Positions 3,939 to 20,157 of a stretch of 64,000 nucleotides of DNA are shown one piece after another. The notes beneath the pieces are model-generated. The model was not told where the DNA came from and did not search any database. It was given only the letters and a program-made list of their open reading frames with translations. Each line of letters opens with the position of its first letter. Position 1 is the first letter of the stretch. The DNA is from a virus, in the IMG/VR virus record IMGVR_UViG_3300049830_000142, positions 1 through 64,000 of that record. One strand, 5' to 3'. The translations under genes were made by a program, and so were the position numbers.

Positions 3939-4046
3939 CTTTTGTTTTTTGGTTTGTTGTTTTGGTGATGTCCGAAGTATAACTCCCACGAACCTTTTTC
4001 TCGGTATCTTGGGGTTTAGCTTTAGATTTGTATTTTTTTGCCGTTC

Positions 4047-4075
4047 TTGACATAAGGTCTTGAATTGGTTAGAAT
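4047..4075 (+). promoter_or_regulatory. sigma70-type promoter upstream of terminase
   Basis: TTGACA-N17-TAGAAT. Confidence 0.75.
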
Positions 4076-4188
4076 TGTGATTACTTAAAGATTAGCGTGA
4101 TTAGGTTGAAGATTTGTGATAAGCATTGAAAAAATTGATCAGCCGCGAGTTCTAGGCCATAGCCTAGATCATCACGTTCCGAATTCCT

Positions 4189-5895
4189 ATGCTTTCTCTC
4201 CATGATTCCTTTGAAAGGGCTACTCAGCTGCTAAAACAGAAAGATCAAAAGTCACGATTTTTAGCAAGACAACTGCTATTCCTGCACAATCCTTTGAGCA
4301 GGCTCGTAGAACTCTATCTGTATAACAACGAGGGGCAACCGCAGAAATTGGATAAGTTTCCAATGATGCGTGCCATTTACGACGGTGTGCCGAGAAAATT
4401 ACTGCTTAAGTGTTCACGTAAAACTTTGAAATCGACGTTGATTAGTAACATAATCGCCTTGAATCTTATTAGGTATAATTATTATAAGATGATGTACATC
4501 GCACCTAATGAGCAGGCTACCAAACGCTTTTCCCACGACTATTTGAGCGCACGCTTTCAGAGTCCTCCATTGAAGGACATCTTAAGCAAACTATCAAAGA
4601 ACGATGTATACGTTAAGGAAGTCGAGGACTCCCACAGCAACATCATTCTAACCTACGCTAGTGAAGACGCTAATCGTACCCGTGGTCCGGCTACAGATCA
4701 TAACGTATTCGACGAGGTGCAGGGTATGAACCTGGACATCTTACCCATTATCAATGAGACAATGGCTATCAGTCAGGTTAAACGCGAGGTCTACGCAGGT
4801 ACGCCACTTACTACAGACAACACTATTAGCTGTCTATGGAAGAAGGCGCACCAAATTGAATGGATAACTAAGTGTTCAGGCTGCAATCACTGGAACATGC
4901 TTACAGAAGCCAATGAGCCTCTGAAGATGATTCTTAAAGCAGGGTTGAGCTGCAGCAAATGCAGCAAGCTGTTAGACACTAGTGCTGGCCAATGGGTTGA
5001 TATGAATCCAGGAGACAGGGAAATCTACGGGTTTCATATGGCTCAGCCTATCCTACCTTACTACAACCAGACTGAAAGAGGTTGGAAGGAAATTTATAAC
5101 AAGGTACACAACATTGACAGTAGCTACAGTGTGCTACAGGTCTATAACGAAGTCTTTGGACTTCCTTACGACGTTGGTACTAAACCGATCACGGAAGAGC
5201 ATCTGAAGTCATTGTGCGTGCTTGGCGACATTAGGACTGTGTATGGCAGGAACATGAGCAGATACGTCTACACTGCGATGGGTGTTGACTGGGGTGTTAA
5301 TCCAGAAAGCTCTAGAACAGTTTGCACTATACTAGGATTTAGACCAGACGGTATCATTGAAGTCTTTTATATCAAGATCTTCAAGAACGTGGACTATGAA
5401 CAGCAGATAAGAGAGATAGCTGATTTAGCCAGGGCATTTAATTGTAACGTGTTTGCTGACTCAGGACCAGATCCGTTAAGAGCAAAGATGTTAGGTAATC
5501 TATATGAGCCATCCAGAACTCAGCTTATCTCTTATCGTGAAACTAATTTAACTCAGTACACTGATATACCGGCTAATGCTTTGGATTGGAGTCAGACTAG
5601 GTGGTGCTTGAACAGAAGTGAAACTATGAGCTTCACTATGGACTTGCTCAAGAAGAACAGAATCCTATTTCCTGCTTGGGATAGTGGTGATACCGCCGAA
5701 GCTATGCAAGACATCCTCAACATCTTCATTGAGGTTAAGGAAGATAACTTAAGAAGCAAAGTGTTTTATAGGCATCGTGATACTGATCCTGATGACTTCT
5801 ATCATACACTAAATTACGCTGCTTGTTCTGCGCATTTGTGGGCCGGTAACAGTTTCTTTACGACTCACAATATTAGTAGTATGGATGATAACTAA
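4189..5895 (+). CDS. terL: terminase large subunit
   Basis: ATPase domain (KCSRKTLKST Walker-A-like, NVFDEVQ Walker B, YAGTP), CxxC..CxxC zinc insert, RNase H-like nuclease (GVDWG, FADSG, DPDDFYH). Confidence 0.8.
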   Translation: MLSLHDSFERATQLLKQKDQKSRFLARQLLFLHNPLSRLVELYLYNNEGQPQKLDKFPMMRAIYDGVPRKLLLKCSRKTLKSTLISNIIALNLIRYNYYKMMYIAPNEQATKRFSHDYLSARFQSPPLKDILSKLSKNDVYVKEVEDSHSNIILTYASEDANRTRGPATDHNVFDEVQGMNLDILPIINETMAISQVKREVYAGTPLTTDNTISCLWKKAHQIEWITKCSGCNHWNMLTEANEPLKMILKAGLSCSKCSKLLDTSAGQWVDMNPGDREIYGFHMAQPILPYYNQTERGWKEIYNKVHNIDSSYSVLQVYNEVFGLPYDVGTKPITEEHLKSLCVLGDIRTVYGRNMSRYVYTAMGVDWGVNPESSRTVCTILGFRPDGIIEVFYIKIFKNVDYEQQIREIADLARAFNCNVFADSGPDPLRAKMLGNLYEPSRTQLISYRETNLTQYTDIPANALDWSQTRWCLNRSETMSFTMDLLKKNRILFPAWDSGDTAEAMQDILNIFIEVKEDNLRSKVFYRHRDTDPDDFYHTLNYAACSAHLWAGNSFFTTHNISSMDDN

Positions 5896-14598: not shown

Positions 14599-14887
14599 GC
14601 TGCAGCAAGCGGTCCAGGATAACGAATACTTCGACCCTAAGGAATTTCCTGATGGTAGGGTAGCTTGTTTAATGGGATTGCTTTACACTTGTGCCATTAT
14701 CGTCCTGAGCGAAAAAAACTGCGAGCATAGCTACGATGACCGTTGGTGCTACTGCAGTCCGGAAAAAGCGAAGTTAGCGTTGGCTGCTTGGGATGGTATG
14801 GGTGAACCTACTGGCTGGCATCGTCATCCTACAACAGGACGTAGACGAGAAAATGGAGATCCAACCAAAGAAACAATAAACCACTGA
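14588..14887 (+). CDS. phage hypothetical protein
   Basis: YDDRWCY..WDGMGEPTGWHRHPTTGRRR, a Trp/Gly-rich pattern I associate with small phage proteins. Confidence 0.65.
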   Translation: MSPKLQQAVQDNEYFDPKEFPDGRVACLMGLLYTCAIIVLSEKNCEHSYDDRWCYCSPEKAKLALAAWDGMGEPTGWHRHPTTGRRRENGDPTKETINH

Positions 14888-14935: not shown

Positions 14936-14983
14936 GAATGCATAGCCTGGGATGGTGGTCCTGGGCTATGCATTCTTTTCTTT
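14936..14983 (+). terminator. intrinsic terminator, probably bidirectional
   Basis: 12-bp perfect stem GAATGCATAGCC/GGCTATGCATTC (extendable by G-T pairs) followed by TTTTCTTT, at a convergent junction. Confidence 0.75.
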
Positions 14984-14988
14984 AGCTA

Positions 14989-15846
14989 TTAGACTGACAC
15001 TTCGTACTTGATAGGGTCACTGTACTTATAGCCGGTCAACCCAGTGTGACCATATTCCCAATCAAAGATACTAGTGAAGTCATCTGTATGTATCTCAGGC
15101 AACTCATGTGTAGCTTGAGTCAATTGCTGCTTAACTCCATCCATGTGGTTAGCATAGATATGAGTATCCATCAAGAACCCGATTAGCTTGCCTTCCTTCA
15201 AATTAGCCTCTTTAGCTAATAGATGAAGTAAGAGAGCGTAACTAGCGATGTTCTGAGGTAAACCACAGCAAGTATCTACACTACGCTGGTTCCAAGCTAA
15301 GTTTAGCTTATCACCTATTACTGTAACTTGAAAACCGTAATGGCAACTAGGTAATGCTGCGTAAGGAAGTACTAAAGGATTCCAGGCAGACACAATCATA
15401 CGTCTGTCACTAGGATTCTTCTTTAAGGTGTCCACTAATACCTTAAGCTGGTCTATCTTATCACCACAGTTATGGCAACCGAATCCTCTCCACTGTGTTC
15501 CATAGATTAGGCCTAGATCGTCTTCAGCAGCCATCTTAGCTTTGGTAGCGTCGTCATTAGCATAGGGAACTAACTTAGGATTACACCAACCATCCCAGTA
15601 ATGACATCCCCTATCCTGCAACCACTTCTTGCTACGTAAGCCCTTGATGAAGAACTCTAACTCAACTTTCGTAGACTTGAACGGAAGCTTTCGACTAGTG
15701 AGTAGTGGAAAGCCATCCGCCATATCGTGCTCAAACATGAAACCGGCAATGGTTAAGCAATCGACACCAGTCCTATTGCCCTTCCATTGCCCTTCAGTAA
15801 GTATCTTGTTGAGTAAGTCTAAGTATTGTTTGTCTGCGTTATTCAT
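14989..15846 (-). CDS. thyA: thymidylate synthase ThyA
   Basis: RTGVD, FPLLTSRK, DLGLIYGTQWR, RRMIVSAWNP, LPSCH, NQRSVD, NIASY, DTHIYANH. Start at MNNADKQY. Confidence 0.95.
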   Translation of the reverse strand: MNNADKQYLDLLNKILTEGQWKGNRTGVDCLTIAGFMFEHDMADGFPLLTSRKLPFKSTKVELEFFIKGLRSKKWLQDRGCHYWDGWCNPKLVPYANDDATKAKMAAEDDLGLIYGTQWRGFGCHNCGDKIDQLKVLVDTLKKNPSDRRMIVSAWNPLVLPYAALPSCHYGFQVTVIGDKLNLAWNQRSVDTCCGLPQNIASYALLLHLLAKEANLKEGKLIGFLMDTHIYANHMDGVKQQLTQATHELPEIHTDDFTSIFDWEYGHTGLTGYKYSDPIKYEVSV

Positions 15847-16036
15847 GACGCAGAGCCAACTGATTCTCACTAAAGATATGTAGCATACCTTCGCCATTAG
15901 CTGTAGTAAGCTCTGCCACAACCCTAGCGTTACCAGTCAAGGTTTTGAATATGCTAACTACTGTACCGTCAAATGCGTATCCTTTAGGTTTACAGATCTT
16001 ATCGCCTACTTTGAATGGAGGTTCAGGGTAATTCAC
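15839..16036 (-). CDS. SH3-fold protein resembling type II (R67/DfrB) dihydrofolate reductase
   Basis: FKVGDKICKPKGYAFDGTVV..E..GMLHIF aligns almost without gaps to DfrB [27 protein letters not shown]. GTG start with GTGA overlap; its 3' end overlaps the thyA start. Confidence 0.5.
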   Translation of the reverse strand: MNYPEPPFKVGDKICKPKGYAFDGTVVSIFKTLTGNARVVAELTTANGEGMLHIFSENQLALRHE

Positions 16037-16404
16037 TTTTCCTCCTCTAAGAATTGCGTTGCCCACTTCTCAGTATCTTCAGCCTGCTTCTTGACCTGAG
16101 CTTCTGTCAAAGCATCAAGTACTGGCTTATCTTTGCGAGGGTCATTTACTGCAGGTCTGTTACCTTCAACCTCAGTCATATACTTAACTGGGTCTGTACC
16201 TTTAGGTAACGTAATGACTCCTGAGTCTGTAGCCATCTGCCAAACTGCGTCTTTTATATCAGTCTTAGGCTGGGTGCTTGCTAAAGCATTGATAATGATC
16301 TGATGTTGAACGAGCTCTGCTTGTGCAGCTGCTTTCTTTCTCTCTGCGTCTACTTTGCGAAATACTGCGGCTTCACTGTTTGTGTCTTGTGTTGGTTGTC
16401 CCAT
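16033..16404 (-). CDS. hypothetical protein
   Basis: 123-aa ORF within the operon. Confidence 0.6.
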   Translation of the reverse strand: MGQPTQDTNSEAAVFRKVDAERKKAAAQAELVQHQIIINALASTQPKTDIKDAVWQMATDSGVITLPKGTDPVKYMTEVEGNRPAVNDPRKDKPVLDALTEAQVKKQAEDTEKWATQFLEEEK

Positions 16405-16405
16405 A

Positions 16406-17164
16406 TTATGTAATTATTTTGTTACCTGCGTCTACTGTTAGCTGGCCTTCTTTAAGTTTACCAACTCTAAAAGCTGTGCAACGATAAATCTCGTTGTGAA
16501 CATCTTCTATAGAGCCTGAAGAATCAATGTTAAGTATCTTACCATTGCTCTCCTTCTCCTTACTCTTTAACCAATCGAAACCTTGAGCTATCCTAGTTTG
16601 GTAAGCTAGAGCCTCGCCCTCAAATCTATCCGTGCCGCCTCTATTAGCTTTGCGCTTAGCTGACTCTTCTGGGCTAATATCCATGACGAAGGTTAGATCA
16701 GGTACGGTTGGGCCTACTGTAAACTGTAGTAGAGCATTGATGATGTTCATGTCAGTCTGTCTACCAAACCCTTGATAGATGATAGTACTATACAAGAACC
16801 TGTCACAAATGCAAATACCGCCCGCTTCAAGAGCAGGTCTAATCTTTTCTTCTACTAACTGAGCTCTGTCAGCATTCATTAGTAATAGTTCAGCTGCATC
16901 ACAAATCTTAGAGCTAGGGTTCTTAACGATTTCCCTGAGTGATTCTCCTAAGCTAGATGAGCCTGGTGATCTGAATTGATGGACATGAAAGCCTAGTTGT
17001 TGGAGAGCCTTAGCTAGTAAATCTACTTGCGTAGTCTTACCTGCGCCATCTACTCCTTCAAAGCTAATCAAATAGCCCTTCTTCAATCCTACCGTAGGAT
17101 ATTGAATACCATCCCTGGCAATCGTATCCTGCATATTCTTTAGAAAGTCTGCATGCTTATTCAT
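16406..17164 (-). CDS. tmk: thymidylate kinase
   Basis: ISFEGVDGAGKTTQ P-loop, FRSPG, ADRAQ, ICDRFLYSTIIYQG, PDLTFVMD, DRFE. Confidence 0.92.
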   Translation of the reverse strand: MNKHADFLKNMQDTIARDGIQYPTVGLKKGYLISFEGVDGAGKTTQVDLLAKALQQLGFHVHQFRSPGSSSLGESLREIVKNPSSKICDAAELLLMNADRAQLVEEKIRPALEAGGICICDRFLYSTIIYQGFGRQTDMNIINALLQFTVGPTVPDLTFVMDISPEESAKRKANRGGTDRFEGEALAYQTRIAQGFDWLKSKEKESNGKILNIDSSGSIEDVHNEIYRCTAFRVGKLKEGQLTVDAGNKIIT

Positions 17165-17588
17165 AAATTGCTTCTAATGCTATAGGGTGTCCTGGGTTGT
17201 AGATATGGTCCAAAGCCAAGTTCACTAACCAAGGGATATTAGGAATTGTCTTTTCTTTACGGGTGATAATATCATTCACTTCGTATATGCCAACGATCTC
17301 AGACTCAACTGTAGTGACATCTAAGATACAGTCCACGGCATAGAAACAAGCGACTACGAAGTTCTCTTCATTCAAGTCGCGTAACGTACAAATCTCTTTC
17401 CAATCAGCTTTGATGTTTGCTTCTTCCTTAGCTTCTCTAGTCATGGCTTGTAGATAAGTTTCGCCATCCTCAACCTTACCACCTACACCATTAAGCAAAC
17501 CTAGCTGCCATTCCGGCTTCTGTTTTCTAATCAACGCTATCTTAGAGCAGTCCTTAGAAAACAGTAAGCCCATTACATATTTAGTCAT
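17157..17588 (-). CDS. Nudix hydrolase
   Basis: Nudix box GGKVEDGETYLQAMTREAKEEANI. Confidence 0.9.
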   Translation of the reverse strand: MTKYVMGLLFSKDCSKIALIRKQKPEWQLGLLNGVGGKVEDGETYLQAMTREAKEEANIKADWKEICTLRDLNEENFVVACFYAVDCILDVTTVESEIVGIYEVNDIITRKEKTIPNIPWLVNLALDHIYNPGHPIALEAIYE

Positions 17589-18129
17589 TATTATACCTTG
17601 CTACTAGCTTACATAAGCTAATAAATTCTTTTTCGTCTAAGTCTTGTTTCATTAAATTAATATTTTTTAACACCCATTGACAGTTATCCTTAGTGTAACC
17701 TTTTGATGAGTCAATTCGGTCTAAAGATGCATTACTAGTCGTGTCTTCACCATACTTACGCAGTGATATTGGAACGTTAGTCAATGCACATAACTTATCC
17801 TGGCGTATAAATAGTTTCCAGCCGTCTTTGATCGTGATCTTAAACGGAATTCCTCGTTTTTTAGCACAATAACGGATACAACTCCATTCTGTGCCACCTA
17901 ATTCCTCGCATCCTAACCATTTCGAGTTTGTCTTGCCACGACGGTTAGTGCACCCACATGATTTTGAAGCACCACTTCTTAAATGATAACCAATCATGCT
18001 CTTGACCTTACCACAATCGCATTGACATTCGAACCTAGATTCATGTCTAGGATTGTGGTTGCCTAAGTCTCTTAAAACCGTTAGTTTACCAAATTTGGCA
18101 CCTTGCTTTATAATAATTTTACTACCCAT
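17581..18129 (-). CDS. free-standing HNH endonuclease
   Basis: FGKLTV..CQCDCG..SKSCGC N-terminus; CALT..ASLDRIDSSKGYTKDNCQWV..INLMK. Confidence 0.85.
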   Translation of the reverse strand: MGSKIIIKQGAKFGKLTVLRDLGNHNPRHESRFECQCDCGKVKSMIGYHLRSGASKSCGCTNRRGKTNSKWLGCEELGGTEWSCIRYCAKKRGIPFKITIKDGWKLFIRQDKLCALTNVPISLRKYGEDTTSNASLDRIDSSKGYTKDNCQWVLKNINLMKQDLDEKEFISLCKLVARYNND

Positions 18130-18174: not shown

Positions 18175-20157
18175 TTATTTCTTAGTAAACTTTATCTCGC
18201 AAGAATCATTACTACAAAATTTTTCAACATCAGCCTCTTCACCATGGATTCCTCTTAATTTTAGAGGTTTCAATTTTTCTAAAATCTCATCGTATTTTTT
18301 AGCAGTTATAGTTTCATAGGGCATTTGTCTATAAGTTGTACCAGACTCTAACATAGGAAGAAATGAAACACCTTTAAGCTGATATTGATAAAGGTCCAAT
18401 GCGAACTTAATTTGATCTGCTTCATGTTTCTTAAATGTAACTGTGCAACTAACTTGGTTATCCGCCCAATAACGCTGCATAAAGGCTGCCATACCCAGTT
18501 GTTCCCACATTGAAACATCTTTTAACGTTCGAATGTTTGTGCCTAAGCTAACAGGAATTTCAACCACCATAGTACTATCTTCCGAGCCATAGCAAGGTTC
18601 TATCTTGTACCCTGCGTCTTTTAGGGGTTGGATTAATTCGCTGTGTTTGCTCAATCGCATTCTACGAATATAGTGTGTGTTTTCTGGAAAATGCACACCT
18701 GGGGTAGCTCCAGCCAAAAGACTTACAGTACCTGATGGTTTAATCGATGTCTTCTTGATGCTTTTTGGAATAGCCAACCAGTCAGAATAAACTTCATCAT
18801 ATCTTTCAATAGCTTTATAGCCTTCCTCACACCAAACTTTGAGCTCATGTATTCCTTTAACCGCAAGAAATTGAGCGATACCACTCATACTGCAGCCTAT
18901 TCTACGGTTTCTAAGCATTACACGATTCGTGTCACTCCAGTGTGTCTCGCCTAAAGTAACGGTCTTAGCATATAGATAAGCGTACTTAAGCGTAACAAGA
19001 TAGTCTGCCATACTATCGTGATTCGATGGGAATGTCTCGACCAAGTTGCAAACTTCATAACTTTCCAAACTCTGTTCTAGACAAGGATTACCTCCAGATA
19101 CTCTAGAGTCTTTGTTGTCCTTGCCGTTATTCATTCTAGAGTAACCTTGCATATTCTCTAACCAAGCAAAACCAGGCTCACCGTTGATACGAGTCCTTTC
19201 AGCTGCGTTGGTATAGTCCATGCCGAGGTCACAAAAGATGCTGTTGTTACTAGTCCAACCAAAGCTCTCTCTCCTAGGGTTGACTTTGTAGTTCTTCAAA
19301 TCCAAATACTCGTTAGAGTTGTAATCACCGAATACTATTTCAGCGGTTCTTCTTACGTTACCAGCTACGACACATTTACCTACTAAGTTCATGATGTCGA
19401 CGATGGTTGTGATTGTGATCGGAGTACCTGCGTTCCTATCTAGAACTGCACGAATCACTTCATGCATCTCTTGTAAAGGACCAGGACCACTAGATACACC
19501 ACCGAAACCTTTGATAGGTAGTCCGGCTACTCTGACTTTGCCATAGTCAAAGACAATCTTTTTAGAACCGTTGAAGTAAGACTCAAGCAATACTTTGAGA
19601 GACTCTACCCAAGCTTCACGAGTGTCTTCTATGACAAATGTCTCGACGTTAGTCTTGTTTGGAGCGTAAATCTGAACCTGACCTGCACCTTTAGTGTCAA
19701 AGCCACATCCTACACCTACCATAGACACGTCCATCAAGAAACAGAAAGGCTTGGACCTATCTTCCTTTAGAGAAGAAGTAGATACGAATGCACAGTTGTT
19801 CAGAGCCATGTAGATGTTACGCTCTTCAGTGATAGGAGAACCCATAGCCCAAAGACCACGACCTGGAGGTAGGAACTTCATACTGAAGATTCGCTCATAC
19901 ATTTCTTGTGCAGACTTTTGGGCTTTCTGTGGTTGCCATCCTAACCTATGCTCTTCAATCCACTTCTTCTGCATATTGAACGTTCCCTCTACTACTCTAG
20001 CTACAGTCTCCCACCAACGTTCGTTCTCACCATTTTCCTTAATGCGGCTGTAAGTACGCATGTAGACTAACTCACCCAAGCCATTGAAACCAAATGGTGG
20101 CTTCTTATGTTTATAGCTAGAAAGAAAGTTGTCTGTTAATCTAAATTTATTTTCCAT
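18175..20157 (-). CDS. nrdJ: class II (adenosylcobalamin-dependent) ribonucleotide reductase, monomeric RTPR type
   Basis: VYMRTYSR, FLPPGRGLW, LNNCAF, GNVRRTAE, GGNPCLEQSLESYEVCNLVE, TSIKPSGTVSLL, C-terminal FCSNDSC; no intein seen. Confidence 0.92.
   Translation of the reverse strand: MENKFRLTDNFLSSYKHKKPPFGFNGLGELVYMRTYSRIKENGENERWWETVARVVEGTFNMQKKWIEEHRLGWQPQKAQKSAQEMYERIFSMKFLPPGRGLWAMGSPITEERNIYMALNNCAFVSTSSLKEDRSKPFCFLMDVSMVGVGCGFDTKGAGQVQIYAPNKTNVETFVIEDTREAWVESLKVLLESYFNGSKKIVFDYGKVRVAGLPIKGFGGVSSGPGPLQEMHEVIRAVLDRNAGTPITITTIVDIMNLVGKCVVAGNVRRTAEIVFGDYNSNEYLDLKNYKVNPRRESFGWTSNNSIFCDLGMDYTNAAERTRINGEPGFAWLENMQGYSRMNNGKDNKDSRVSGGNPCLEQSLESYEVCNLVETFPSNHDSMADYLVTLKYAYLYAKTVTLGETHWSDTNRVMLRNRRIGCSMSGIAQFLAVKGIHELKVWCEEGYKAIERYDEVYSDWLAIPKSIKKTSIKPSGTVSLLAGATPGVHFPENTHYIRRMRLSKHSELIQPLKDAGYKIEPCYGSEDSTMVVEIPVSLGTNIRTLKDVSMWEQLGMAAFMQRYWADNQVSCTVTFKKHEADQIKFALDLYQYQLKGVSFLPMLESGTTYRQMPYETITAKKYDEILEKLKPLKLRGIHGEEADVEKFCSNDSCEIKFTKK

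Follow-up and report, generated by a model that had tools for sequence, protein, structure and literature searches.

Positions 15839–16036 on the minus strand of the window, by which we mean the whole 64,000-nucleotide stretch analyzed here (positions 1 to 64,000 of the IMG/VR virus record IMGVR_UViG_3300049830_000142), encode a 65-amino-acid (65-aa) SH3-like protein of the DfrB/R67 type, cluster II, recognized as an open reading frame (ORF), by profile homology, and by its predicted fold and tetramer. The protein is a real, distant relative of R67/DfrB, a very small, tetrameric dihydrofolate reductase (DHFR) that is insensitive to trimethoprim, a conclusion we draw because the sequence profile, the Pfam matches of its family members, the hhalign comparison and the structure each rank R67 first. 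It probably functions as a tunnel DHFR, assembled as a homotetramer, and supplies regenerated tetrahydrofolate to the co-translated thymidylate synthase, ThyA.

In the proposed mechanism, four SH3-like protomers of 65 residues would assemble into a D2-symmetric tetramer with a central, positively charged tunnel, lined by the L-H-I-F motif of strand β4 and the invariant Lys16. The tunnel would hold NADPH and dihydrofolate (DHF) together, and hydride transfer between them would regenerate tetrahydrofolate. Translational coupling links the gene to thyA, and both belong to an operon that also encodes a class II ribonucleotide reductase (RNR), a NUDIX hydrolase and a thymidylate kinase (Tmk); the product of the gene would supply the reductase step for ThyA in a phage whose record contains neither a FolA-type DHFR nor ThyX.

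A phage branch of this kind, its thyA linkage and its DHFR activity were already published in 2025 (Lemay-St-Denis et al. 2025, Mol Biol Evol, PMC12486381). That study assembled 386 DfrB homologs, 20 of them viral, and defined a "cluster II" with LHIF or LHIY motifs that was predicted to form DfrB1-like tetramers, and in which DHFR activity, trimethoprim resistance and tetramers were shown (PMC12486381). Since motif, identity level, predicted assembly and genomic context all agree, the window protein is a further member of this branch.

Homology to R67 and the predicted tetramer

Searched as a single sequence, the 65-aa protein gave no PF06442 match in hmmscan and only a chance DUF3686 hit in Pfam. 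A phmmer search of the PDB returned only eIF6 (E 1.6), PHROGs gave an E of 0.29, and NCBIfam gave nothing. Judged by sequence, the protein lies outside Pfam's PF06442 as that family is delimited and belongs to the wider DfrB superfamily only.

The relationship emerges at the level of the family. A profile built from 50 homologs of the protein has as its top PDB sequence match 2p4t (R67 Q67H; E 0.025), aligned end to end and followed by wild-type R67 entries, and 12 of its 50 members individually match PF06442, with a best E of 2.4e-4. We also compared the profile with an alignment of authentic dfrB1, dfrB3, dfrB4 and dfrB10 from plasmid records, to which two more distant annotated DfrB genes (rhizobial or Pseudomonas) were added. 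hhalign joined the two with a probability of 93.2% (E 2.9e-7) over 56 columns, covering R67 residues 20–76 at 23% identity. The original prediction, made by eye, had proposed an alignment to R67 at about a quarter identity with one 2-aa insertion; hhalign reproduces it, with a net two-residue insertion relative to R67 in the loop preceding the last strand. The same is true of the residues that it had listed as retained, namely F.xGD, the equivalent of K32, G..[WF].G, E and G. The pairings, given as window protein/R67, are F8/F24, G11-D12/G27-D28, K16/K32, G19/G35, F22/W38, G24/G40, E42/E58 and G50/G64. L52-H53-I54-F55 pairs with V66-Q67-I68-Y69 of R67, preserving the nonpolar/polar/nonpolar/aromatic pattern of the β4 tunnel motif, as had been proposed for LHIF at the VQIY tetrad. 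The profile search against the R67 family that had been suggested as a check therefore came out in favor of R67 on all three counts, by best PDB match, by hhalign and by the PF06442 matches of the members.

Two metagenomic proteins carry the domain in tandem. P0080 (205 aa) has an LHIF-type domain together with a GSVLIY domain that scores above the PF06442 cut-off (26.7 against 25 bits) and, by its sequence, bridges the LHIF group and the PF06442 group. P0157 (300 aa) also has two tandem DfrB-like domains. Such two-domain chains could form a tetramer from two chains, breaking the fourfold symmetry.

Conservation was counted over 325 domains from all retrieved members. K16, the equivalent of K32, is present in 325 of 325. 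Each of G19, Y20, R38, E42, L52, H53 and I54 is found in at least 98% of the domains, H53 in 320 and I54 in 322. This invariant set, K16, G19, Y20, R38, E42 and L52-H53-I54, contrasts with the view of DfrB as having 'no conserved active-site residue'. At position 55, 312 domains have F and 11 have Y; at position 22, the counts are 307 for F, 13 for Y and 4 for W. One subgroup, with the signature …ECTVPE..G[AM]LHIY and often W at position 22, is nearer to R67 at the W38 and Y69 positions.

The AlphaFold2 model, computed on the 50-homolog alignment, has a mean predicted local distance difference test score (pLDDT) of 84.8 and consists of four long strands and a short C-terminal strand. This all-beta, SH3-like model superposes on R67 and does not have the ~160-aa alpha/beta fold of PF00186. 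In a Foldseek search of the PDB, R67 DHFR occupies all of ranks 1–7, with template modeling (TM) scores of 0.68–0.80 and root-mean-square deviations of 2.4–2.6 Å. A best match to some other SH3 or KOW family had been named beforehand as the outcome that would speak against the assignment, and R67 took those places instead.

A predicted tetramer had also been proposed as a check, and the protein folded in four copies gave a homotetramer with R67-like interfaces. Its interaction prediction score from aligned errors (ipSAE) was 0.81, whereas none of three controls exceeded 0.01. Among proteins with solved structures, 20 of 30 same-chain pairs and 1 of 23 single chains reach the ipSAE mark, a two-copy calibration that is approximate for four copies. 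At least 97% of contacts were common to the four-copy runs, with pLDDT of at least 85. The predicted strand interface involves residues 25–34, 38–42 and 48–54, with symmetric contacts 28:28, 40:40 and 54:54, and a second predicted interface sets loop 19–22 against loop 43–52. A DfrB1-like tetramer is defined by a β2-β2 monomer-monomer interface and an L1-L3 dimer-dimer interface (PMC12486381), and the interfaces in the model match this definition. Part of the tetramer score may stem from solved R67 structures that the model has memorized, and the score speaks for likeness rather than for binding.

The gene, its operon and its linkage to thyA

The small gene is tightly embedded between its neighbors. 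Its start codon, read from the sequence, is GTG at 16036–16034, preceded on the minus strand by a Shine-Dalgarno sequence, AGGAGG (16041–16046), 4 nt 5' of the start. The GTG shares the tetranucleotide GTGA with the TGA stop of the preceding 123-aa ORF. At the other end, the stop codon TAA (15841–15839) lies 8 nt inside thyA, whose ATG is at 15846–15844, the overlap being ATGAATAA. The 65-aa ORF with a 3' end overlapping the thyA start, from which the original prediction set out, is borne out, on the minus strand and with an 8-nt overlap. There are 71 close homologs of the protein (57–84% identity), all called "hypothetical" and without a Pfam domain, and an exhaustive phmmer search with the 65-aa protein returned 687 clusters at 50% identity (E ≤ 1e-3).

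The window belongs to a virus record of 134,588 bp, estimated to be 62% complete, from a large phage with an estimated genome size of about 217 kb. The downstream thyA (14989–15846, minus strand, 285 aa) matches PF00303 (E 2.5e-82) and TIGR03284 (248 bits against a cut-off of 108), and is the one ThyA gene of the record. Identification of this enzyme as a dCMP/dUMP hydroxymethylase was rejected, as it passes TIGR03284, the thymidylate synthase equivalog. The absence of a DfrA-type DHFR from the window, asserted in the original prediction, holds and extends further: no FolA-type DHFR (PF00186) was found in the window or in the entire record, and no ThyX in the record. Over all six frames of the record, the 65-aa ORF is the sole PF06442-like candidate.

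Linkage of homologs to thyA had likewise been put forward as a check, and adjacency or fusion proved to be recurrent. We examined 80 IMG/VR loci, annotating their neighborhoods with our own ORF calls and Pfam tallies; in these loci neighbors are assigned to the ThyA family as a whole, the distinction between thymidylate synthase and dCMP/dUMP hydroxymethylase having been drawn for the window's enzyme only. A ThyA-family gene lies within 6 kb in 17 of the 80 loci, always on the same strand. In about a dozen loci ThyA and the small gene overlap or abut one another, with either one first, directly so in L002, L037, L041, L047, L055, L060, L063 and L065; in L035/36, L052 and L062 it lies within 600 nt. 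On the domain tree, which is poorly resolved, this linkage needs 4–8 changes and is therefore spread over several lineages.

Cultured phages provide further cases. Kolga, a Pelagibacter phage, encodes the domain in the C-terminal part of gp36 (150 aa), whose gene stops 4 nt ahead of gp35, which is annotated as "putative thymidylate synthase". In the Rhizobium phages RHEph10 and RHph_N1_10, an unannotated domain stands in frame with the annotated thymidylate synthase, with no intervening stop: the annotated coding sequence starts at an internal ATG, and a 57-aa DfrB-like domain lies upstream in the open frame. In RHph_N1_10 (MN988505) the resulting 331-aa DfrB-ThyA ORF, at L097:2995-3990, has a TTG start just past the stop of the upstream gene, and RHEph10 (NC_034248) has the same in-frame arrangement at L096:~3983-4999. 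From these reading frames, a 331-aa DfrB-ThyA fusion has been missed by the GenBank annotation of RHph_N1_10 and RHEph10. RHph_N1_15 and RHph_N2_6 give tblastn matches at the corresponding genome position, which suggests that these phages share the arrangement. The complete genomes of RHEph10, RHph_N1_10 and Kolga contain no FolA-type DHFR.

A targeted search recovered 18 metagenomic proteins of 324–340 aa with an N-terminal DfrB-like domain and PF00303, all of which match the window family's hidden Markov model with E-values of 1e-12 to 1e-15. Most of these proteins have A, D, S, N, K, Y, L, Q or R, and not M, at the ThyA "start", and in them the ThyA domain could arise only as part of a fusion.

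The rest of the operon is a minus-strand chain of overlapping or abutting genes, which runs from the class II RNR through a Cys-rich ORF, the NUDIX hydrolase, thymidylate kinase and the 123-aa ORF to the 65-aa ORF and thyA. At its head stands the adenosylcobalamin-dependent ribonucleoside-triphosphate reductase (18175–20157, 660 aa; TIGR02505, 358.9 bits against a cut-off of 340). It is followed by the Cys-rich ORF (17581–18129, 182 aa), which has CxCxC…CxC motifs and no NCBIfam match, the NUDIX hydrolase (17157–17588, 143 aa; PF00293, E 8.4e-9) and thymidylate kinase (16406–17164, 252 aa; PF02223, E 2.9e-44). The 182-aa ORF resembles a homing-endonuclease-type insertion in a nucleotide-metabolism operon and, judged by gene spacing, is missing at the syntenic locus L002. 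The acidic, lysine-rich 123-aa ORF (16033–16404) directly 5' of the DfrB-like gene has no significant Pfam or PHROG family match; a counterpart with 34% identity occupies the same position in L002, and the ORF may belong to the Tmk-DfrB-ThyA unit. Between the thyA stop (14989) and convergent plus-strand genes ending at 14887, a consensus scan places a hairpin with an 18-bp perfect stem (14936–14975, no strand assigned). It is likely the terminator that ends the minus-strand operon, and probably a bidirectional one.

Alternative explanations and the role of the protein

The short length of the ORF, its GTG start and the fact that the domain goes unannotated in some phages, such as the Rhizobium phages, would fit a chance open frame in the thyA leader region rather than a real gene. 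Against this stand the strong Shine-Dalgarno sequence, the start and stop overlaps on both sides of the gene, a confidently predicted fold, and hundreds of homologs with conservation at the amino-acid level down to 45% identity; the probability of a chance frame is next to nil, and conservation already refutes it. It is also conceivable that a real gene encodes an unrelated small SH3, KOW, Tudor or HspQ-like domain that binds nucleic acids or proteins, its likeness to R67 being convergent or fortuitous. SH3-like barrels are common in phages, the Foldseek E-values for R67 are modest (2e-3 to 7e-3), with HspQ, CAP-Gly, PWWP, NusG-KOW and Tudor ranking close below, and weak YccV-like matches occur in 6 of the 50 profile members (best E 0.029). 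However, four independent lines give R67 the top rank across the whole domain, the key positions being aligned, the bridging protein P0080 carries both domain types, and ThyA fusion and linkage would be left without a rationale. This explanation is already disfavored, and we regard it as very improbable.

Several observations weigh against a DHFR that serves ThyA. At the level of the single sequence, the protein reaches 11.7 bits against PF06442 in the six-frame search (E 0.027), below the gathering threshold of 25. The equivalent of W38 is Phe, and W38F weakens the DfrB1 tetramer (PMC9835603). A0A6J5PTB3, the only characterized LHIF protein, was the least efficient homolog tested; it binds two NADPH by preference and is, in the words of its authors, 'more of a binder than a catalyst' (PMC12486381). 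The genomic context points the same way. In a whole-record search of 47 related viral contigs, 13 of them at least 90% complete, a ThyA-family gene was found in only 16, and in only 3 of the 13 near-complete ones. ThyA, ThyX and FolA are all missing from about two thirds of the records, including 10 of the 13. A FolA-type DHFR occurs in 1 of the 47 and ThyX in none; a reading in which ThyX is the partner was rejected on this count. The nearest relatives after L002, namely L003 (IMGVR_UViG_3300046808_001241, a complete 217-kb genome with terminal repeats), L004 (also complete) and L006, have proteins 66–74% identical to the window protein and lack ThyA, ThyX and FolA; there, the neighbors of the gene are a homing endonuclease (GIY-YIG/NUMOD1), a DNA ligase, a clamp loader and a DenV-type glycosylase. 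ThyA-less loci in general have mostly unknown small proteins as neighbors, together with replication and nucleotide-metabolism genes, and some longer members carry a DnaA_C-type helix-turn-helix (HTH) domain (PF08299) or unknown extensions.

These observations raise an alternative in which the DfrB-fold tetramer was selected for binding NADPH or another nucleotide, or as a scaffold or oligomerization element in replication or nucleotide-metabolism machinery, and in which DHFR is a weak side activity, relevant only in ThyA-carrying phages. It would account for the many records that lack all three enzymes, for the replication and repair genes beside the gene in ThyA-less records, and for the fusions to PF08299 or long extensions. 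It also fits the preference of the LHIF homolog for two NADPH over NADPH and DHF, for which the authors propose a primary binding function (PMC12486381), as well as the strict conservation of K16 and seven other positions, unexpected for a tunnel described as permissive. The window itself argues otherwise, its gene being translationally coupled to thyA in a phage record with no other DHFR. Furthermore, ThyA linkage arose or was kept in several lineages and became covalent at least once, the DHFR domain of a fusion is kinetically competent, and a phage DHFR would also be useful with the host's ThyA. We consider the binding alternative, the main rival, rather unlikely for the window protein. At the level of the family, a related proposal is likewise rather unlikely: the primary role of the LHIF branch as a whole, which is very large and almost exclusively viral, would be something other than ThyA-coupled DHF recycling. 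The tetramer would then bind a partner from the replication module, or else a specific nucleotide or dinucleotide such as two NADPH, with DHFR co-opted only in lineages that acquired thyA. Cellular genome bins contribute only six loci to this branch, all on contigs of metagenome-assembled genomes. For the window protein, DHFR activity, with DHF recycling as its main role, is most likely, by analogy with homologs of the same motif on which activity and tetramer formation were shown.

In three proteins of 165 aa (P0262, P0259 and P0265, e.g. on a Weeksella sp. contig), an N-terminal PF08299 HTH domain is fused to the LHIF domain. These match the DnaA-domain fusions mentioned in earlier work, in which fusions of DfrB homologs to DnaA domains and to NTP pyrophosphohydrolase were reported (PMC12486381).

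Our analysis confirms that phages employ the smallest DHFR fold known alongside thymidylate synthase, as its working partner, and offers a clear large-phage example, with overlapping genes, an RNR-NUDIX-Tmk-DfrB-ThyA operon and no FolA. As the principle itself appeared in print in 2025, the contribution of these results is to annotation and scale. Public data carry no annotation for the family ("hypothetical", no Pfam domain), and with 687 clusters it greatly exceeds the published set, with its 20 viral homologs, in size and in viral share. What is added to that work (PMC12486381) is incremental: the family is large and predominantly viral, its residues are strictly conserved, many carriers lack thymidylate synthase, and cultured Rhizobium phages have DfrB-ThyA fusions that start-codon annotation had hidden. 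The original prediction of a phage-borne relative of type II DHFR stands; the relevance that it claimed for the origin of dfrB resistance genes is reduced to the deep history of the fold. At 23% identity the protein is a distant cousin rather than a near ancestor and so has little bearing on clinical dfrB1–10, from which it is too distant for direct inference on the recent origin of the resistance cassettes.

Comparison with known systems

The closest characterized counterpart is A0A6J5PTB3, an LHIF protein with 24% identity to DfrB1, a KM(DHF) of 160 µM and a kcat of 1.07 per s, which forms a tetramer and confers trimethoprim resistance (PMC12486381). The window protein resembles it in the LHIF motif and in a similar identity to DfrB1 (about 24%), as well as in being a stand-alone protein of ~60 aa from an uncultured tailed phage with a predicted DfrB1-like tetramer. 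It differs in its 8-nt thyA overlap inside an RNR-NUDIX-Tmk-ThyA operon of a large phage, and its activity is a prediction. The four viral cluster II homologs are all found close to ThyA, at a distance of 5 bp in one case, in viruses without FolA (PMC12486381), a link that the window shares. The multidomain DfrB homologs described earlier keep VQIY; two come from phages, and none is thyA-linked (Lemay-St-Denis et al. 2023, PMC9835603).

The LHIY fusion DfrB-TS, described as bacterial, is bifunctional, with a kinetically competent DHFR domain; it forms tetramers and confers trimethoprim resistance (PMC12486381). It shares with the window protein the signature K..G.Y.F.G ... R.VVE ... G.LHI[FY] and the functional pairing with ThyA. 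The fusion is a single polypeptide, whereas the window has separate, translationally coupled genes, and the residue at the Y69 position is Y in the fusion and F in the window protein. The pairing itself has familiar parallels. In the frd-td pair of T4-type phages and in the DHFR-TS of protozoa and plants, a FolA-type DHFR is paired or fused with ThyA. As in the window, a DHFR stands beside or is fused to thymidylate synthase and DHF is recycled; the reductase there, however, is a monomer of the FolA fold, unrelated in sequence and structure and of a family, PF00186, that is absent here.

With R67 and DfrB1–DfrB10 (PDB 1VIE, 2RK1, 2P4T), the window protein shares the SH3-like fold (TM 0.7–0.8), the equivalents of K32, G35, G40, E58, G64 and I68, and a predicted D2 tetramer that uses the same two types of interface. 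DfrB12, an enzyme with a natural Q67H, remains able to confer resistance to trimethoprim (Cellier-Goetghebeur et al. 2022, PMC9774602), and in the R67 family both the Q67H and Y69F states, which correspond to H53 and F55 of the window protein, are compatible with activity. The differences are the identity of 23%, the changes from VQIY to LHIF, from S65 to Met and from W38 to Phe, a loop before β4 that is two residues longer, and an N-terminus without the 20 disordered residues of R67. Finally, R67 and DfrB1–DfrB10 are encoded by plasmid- and integron-borne cassettes, whereas the window protein is phage-borne and coupled to thyA.

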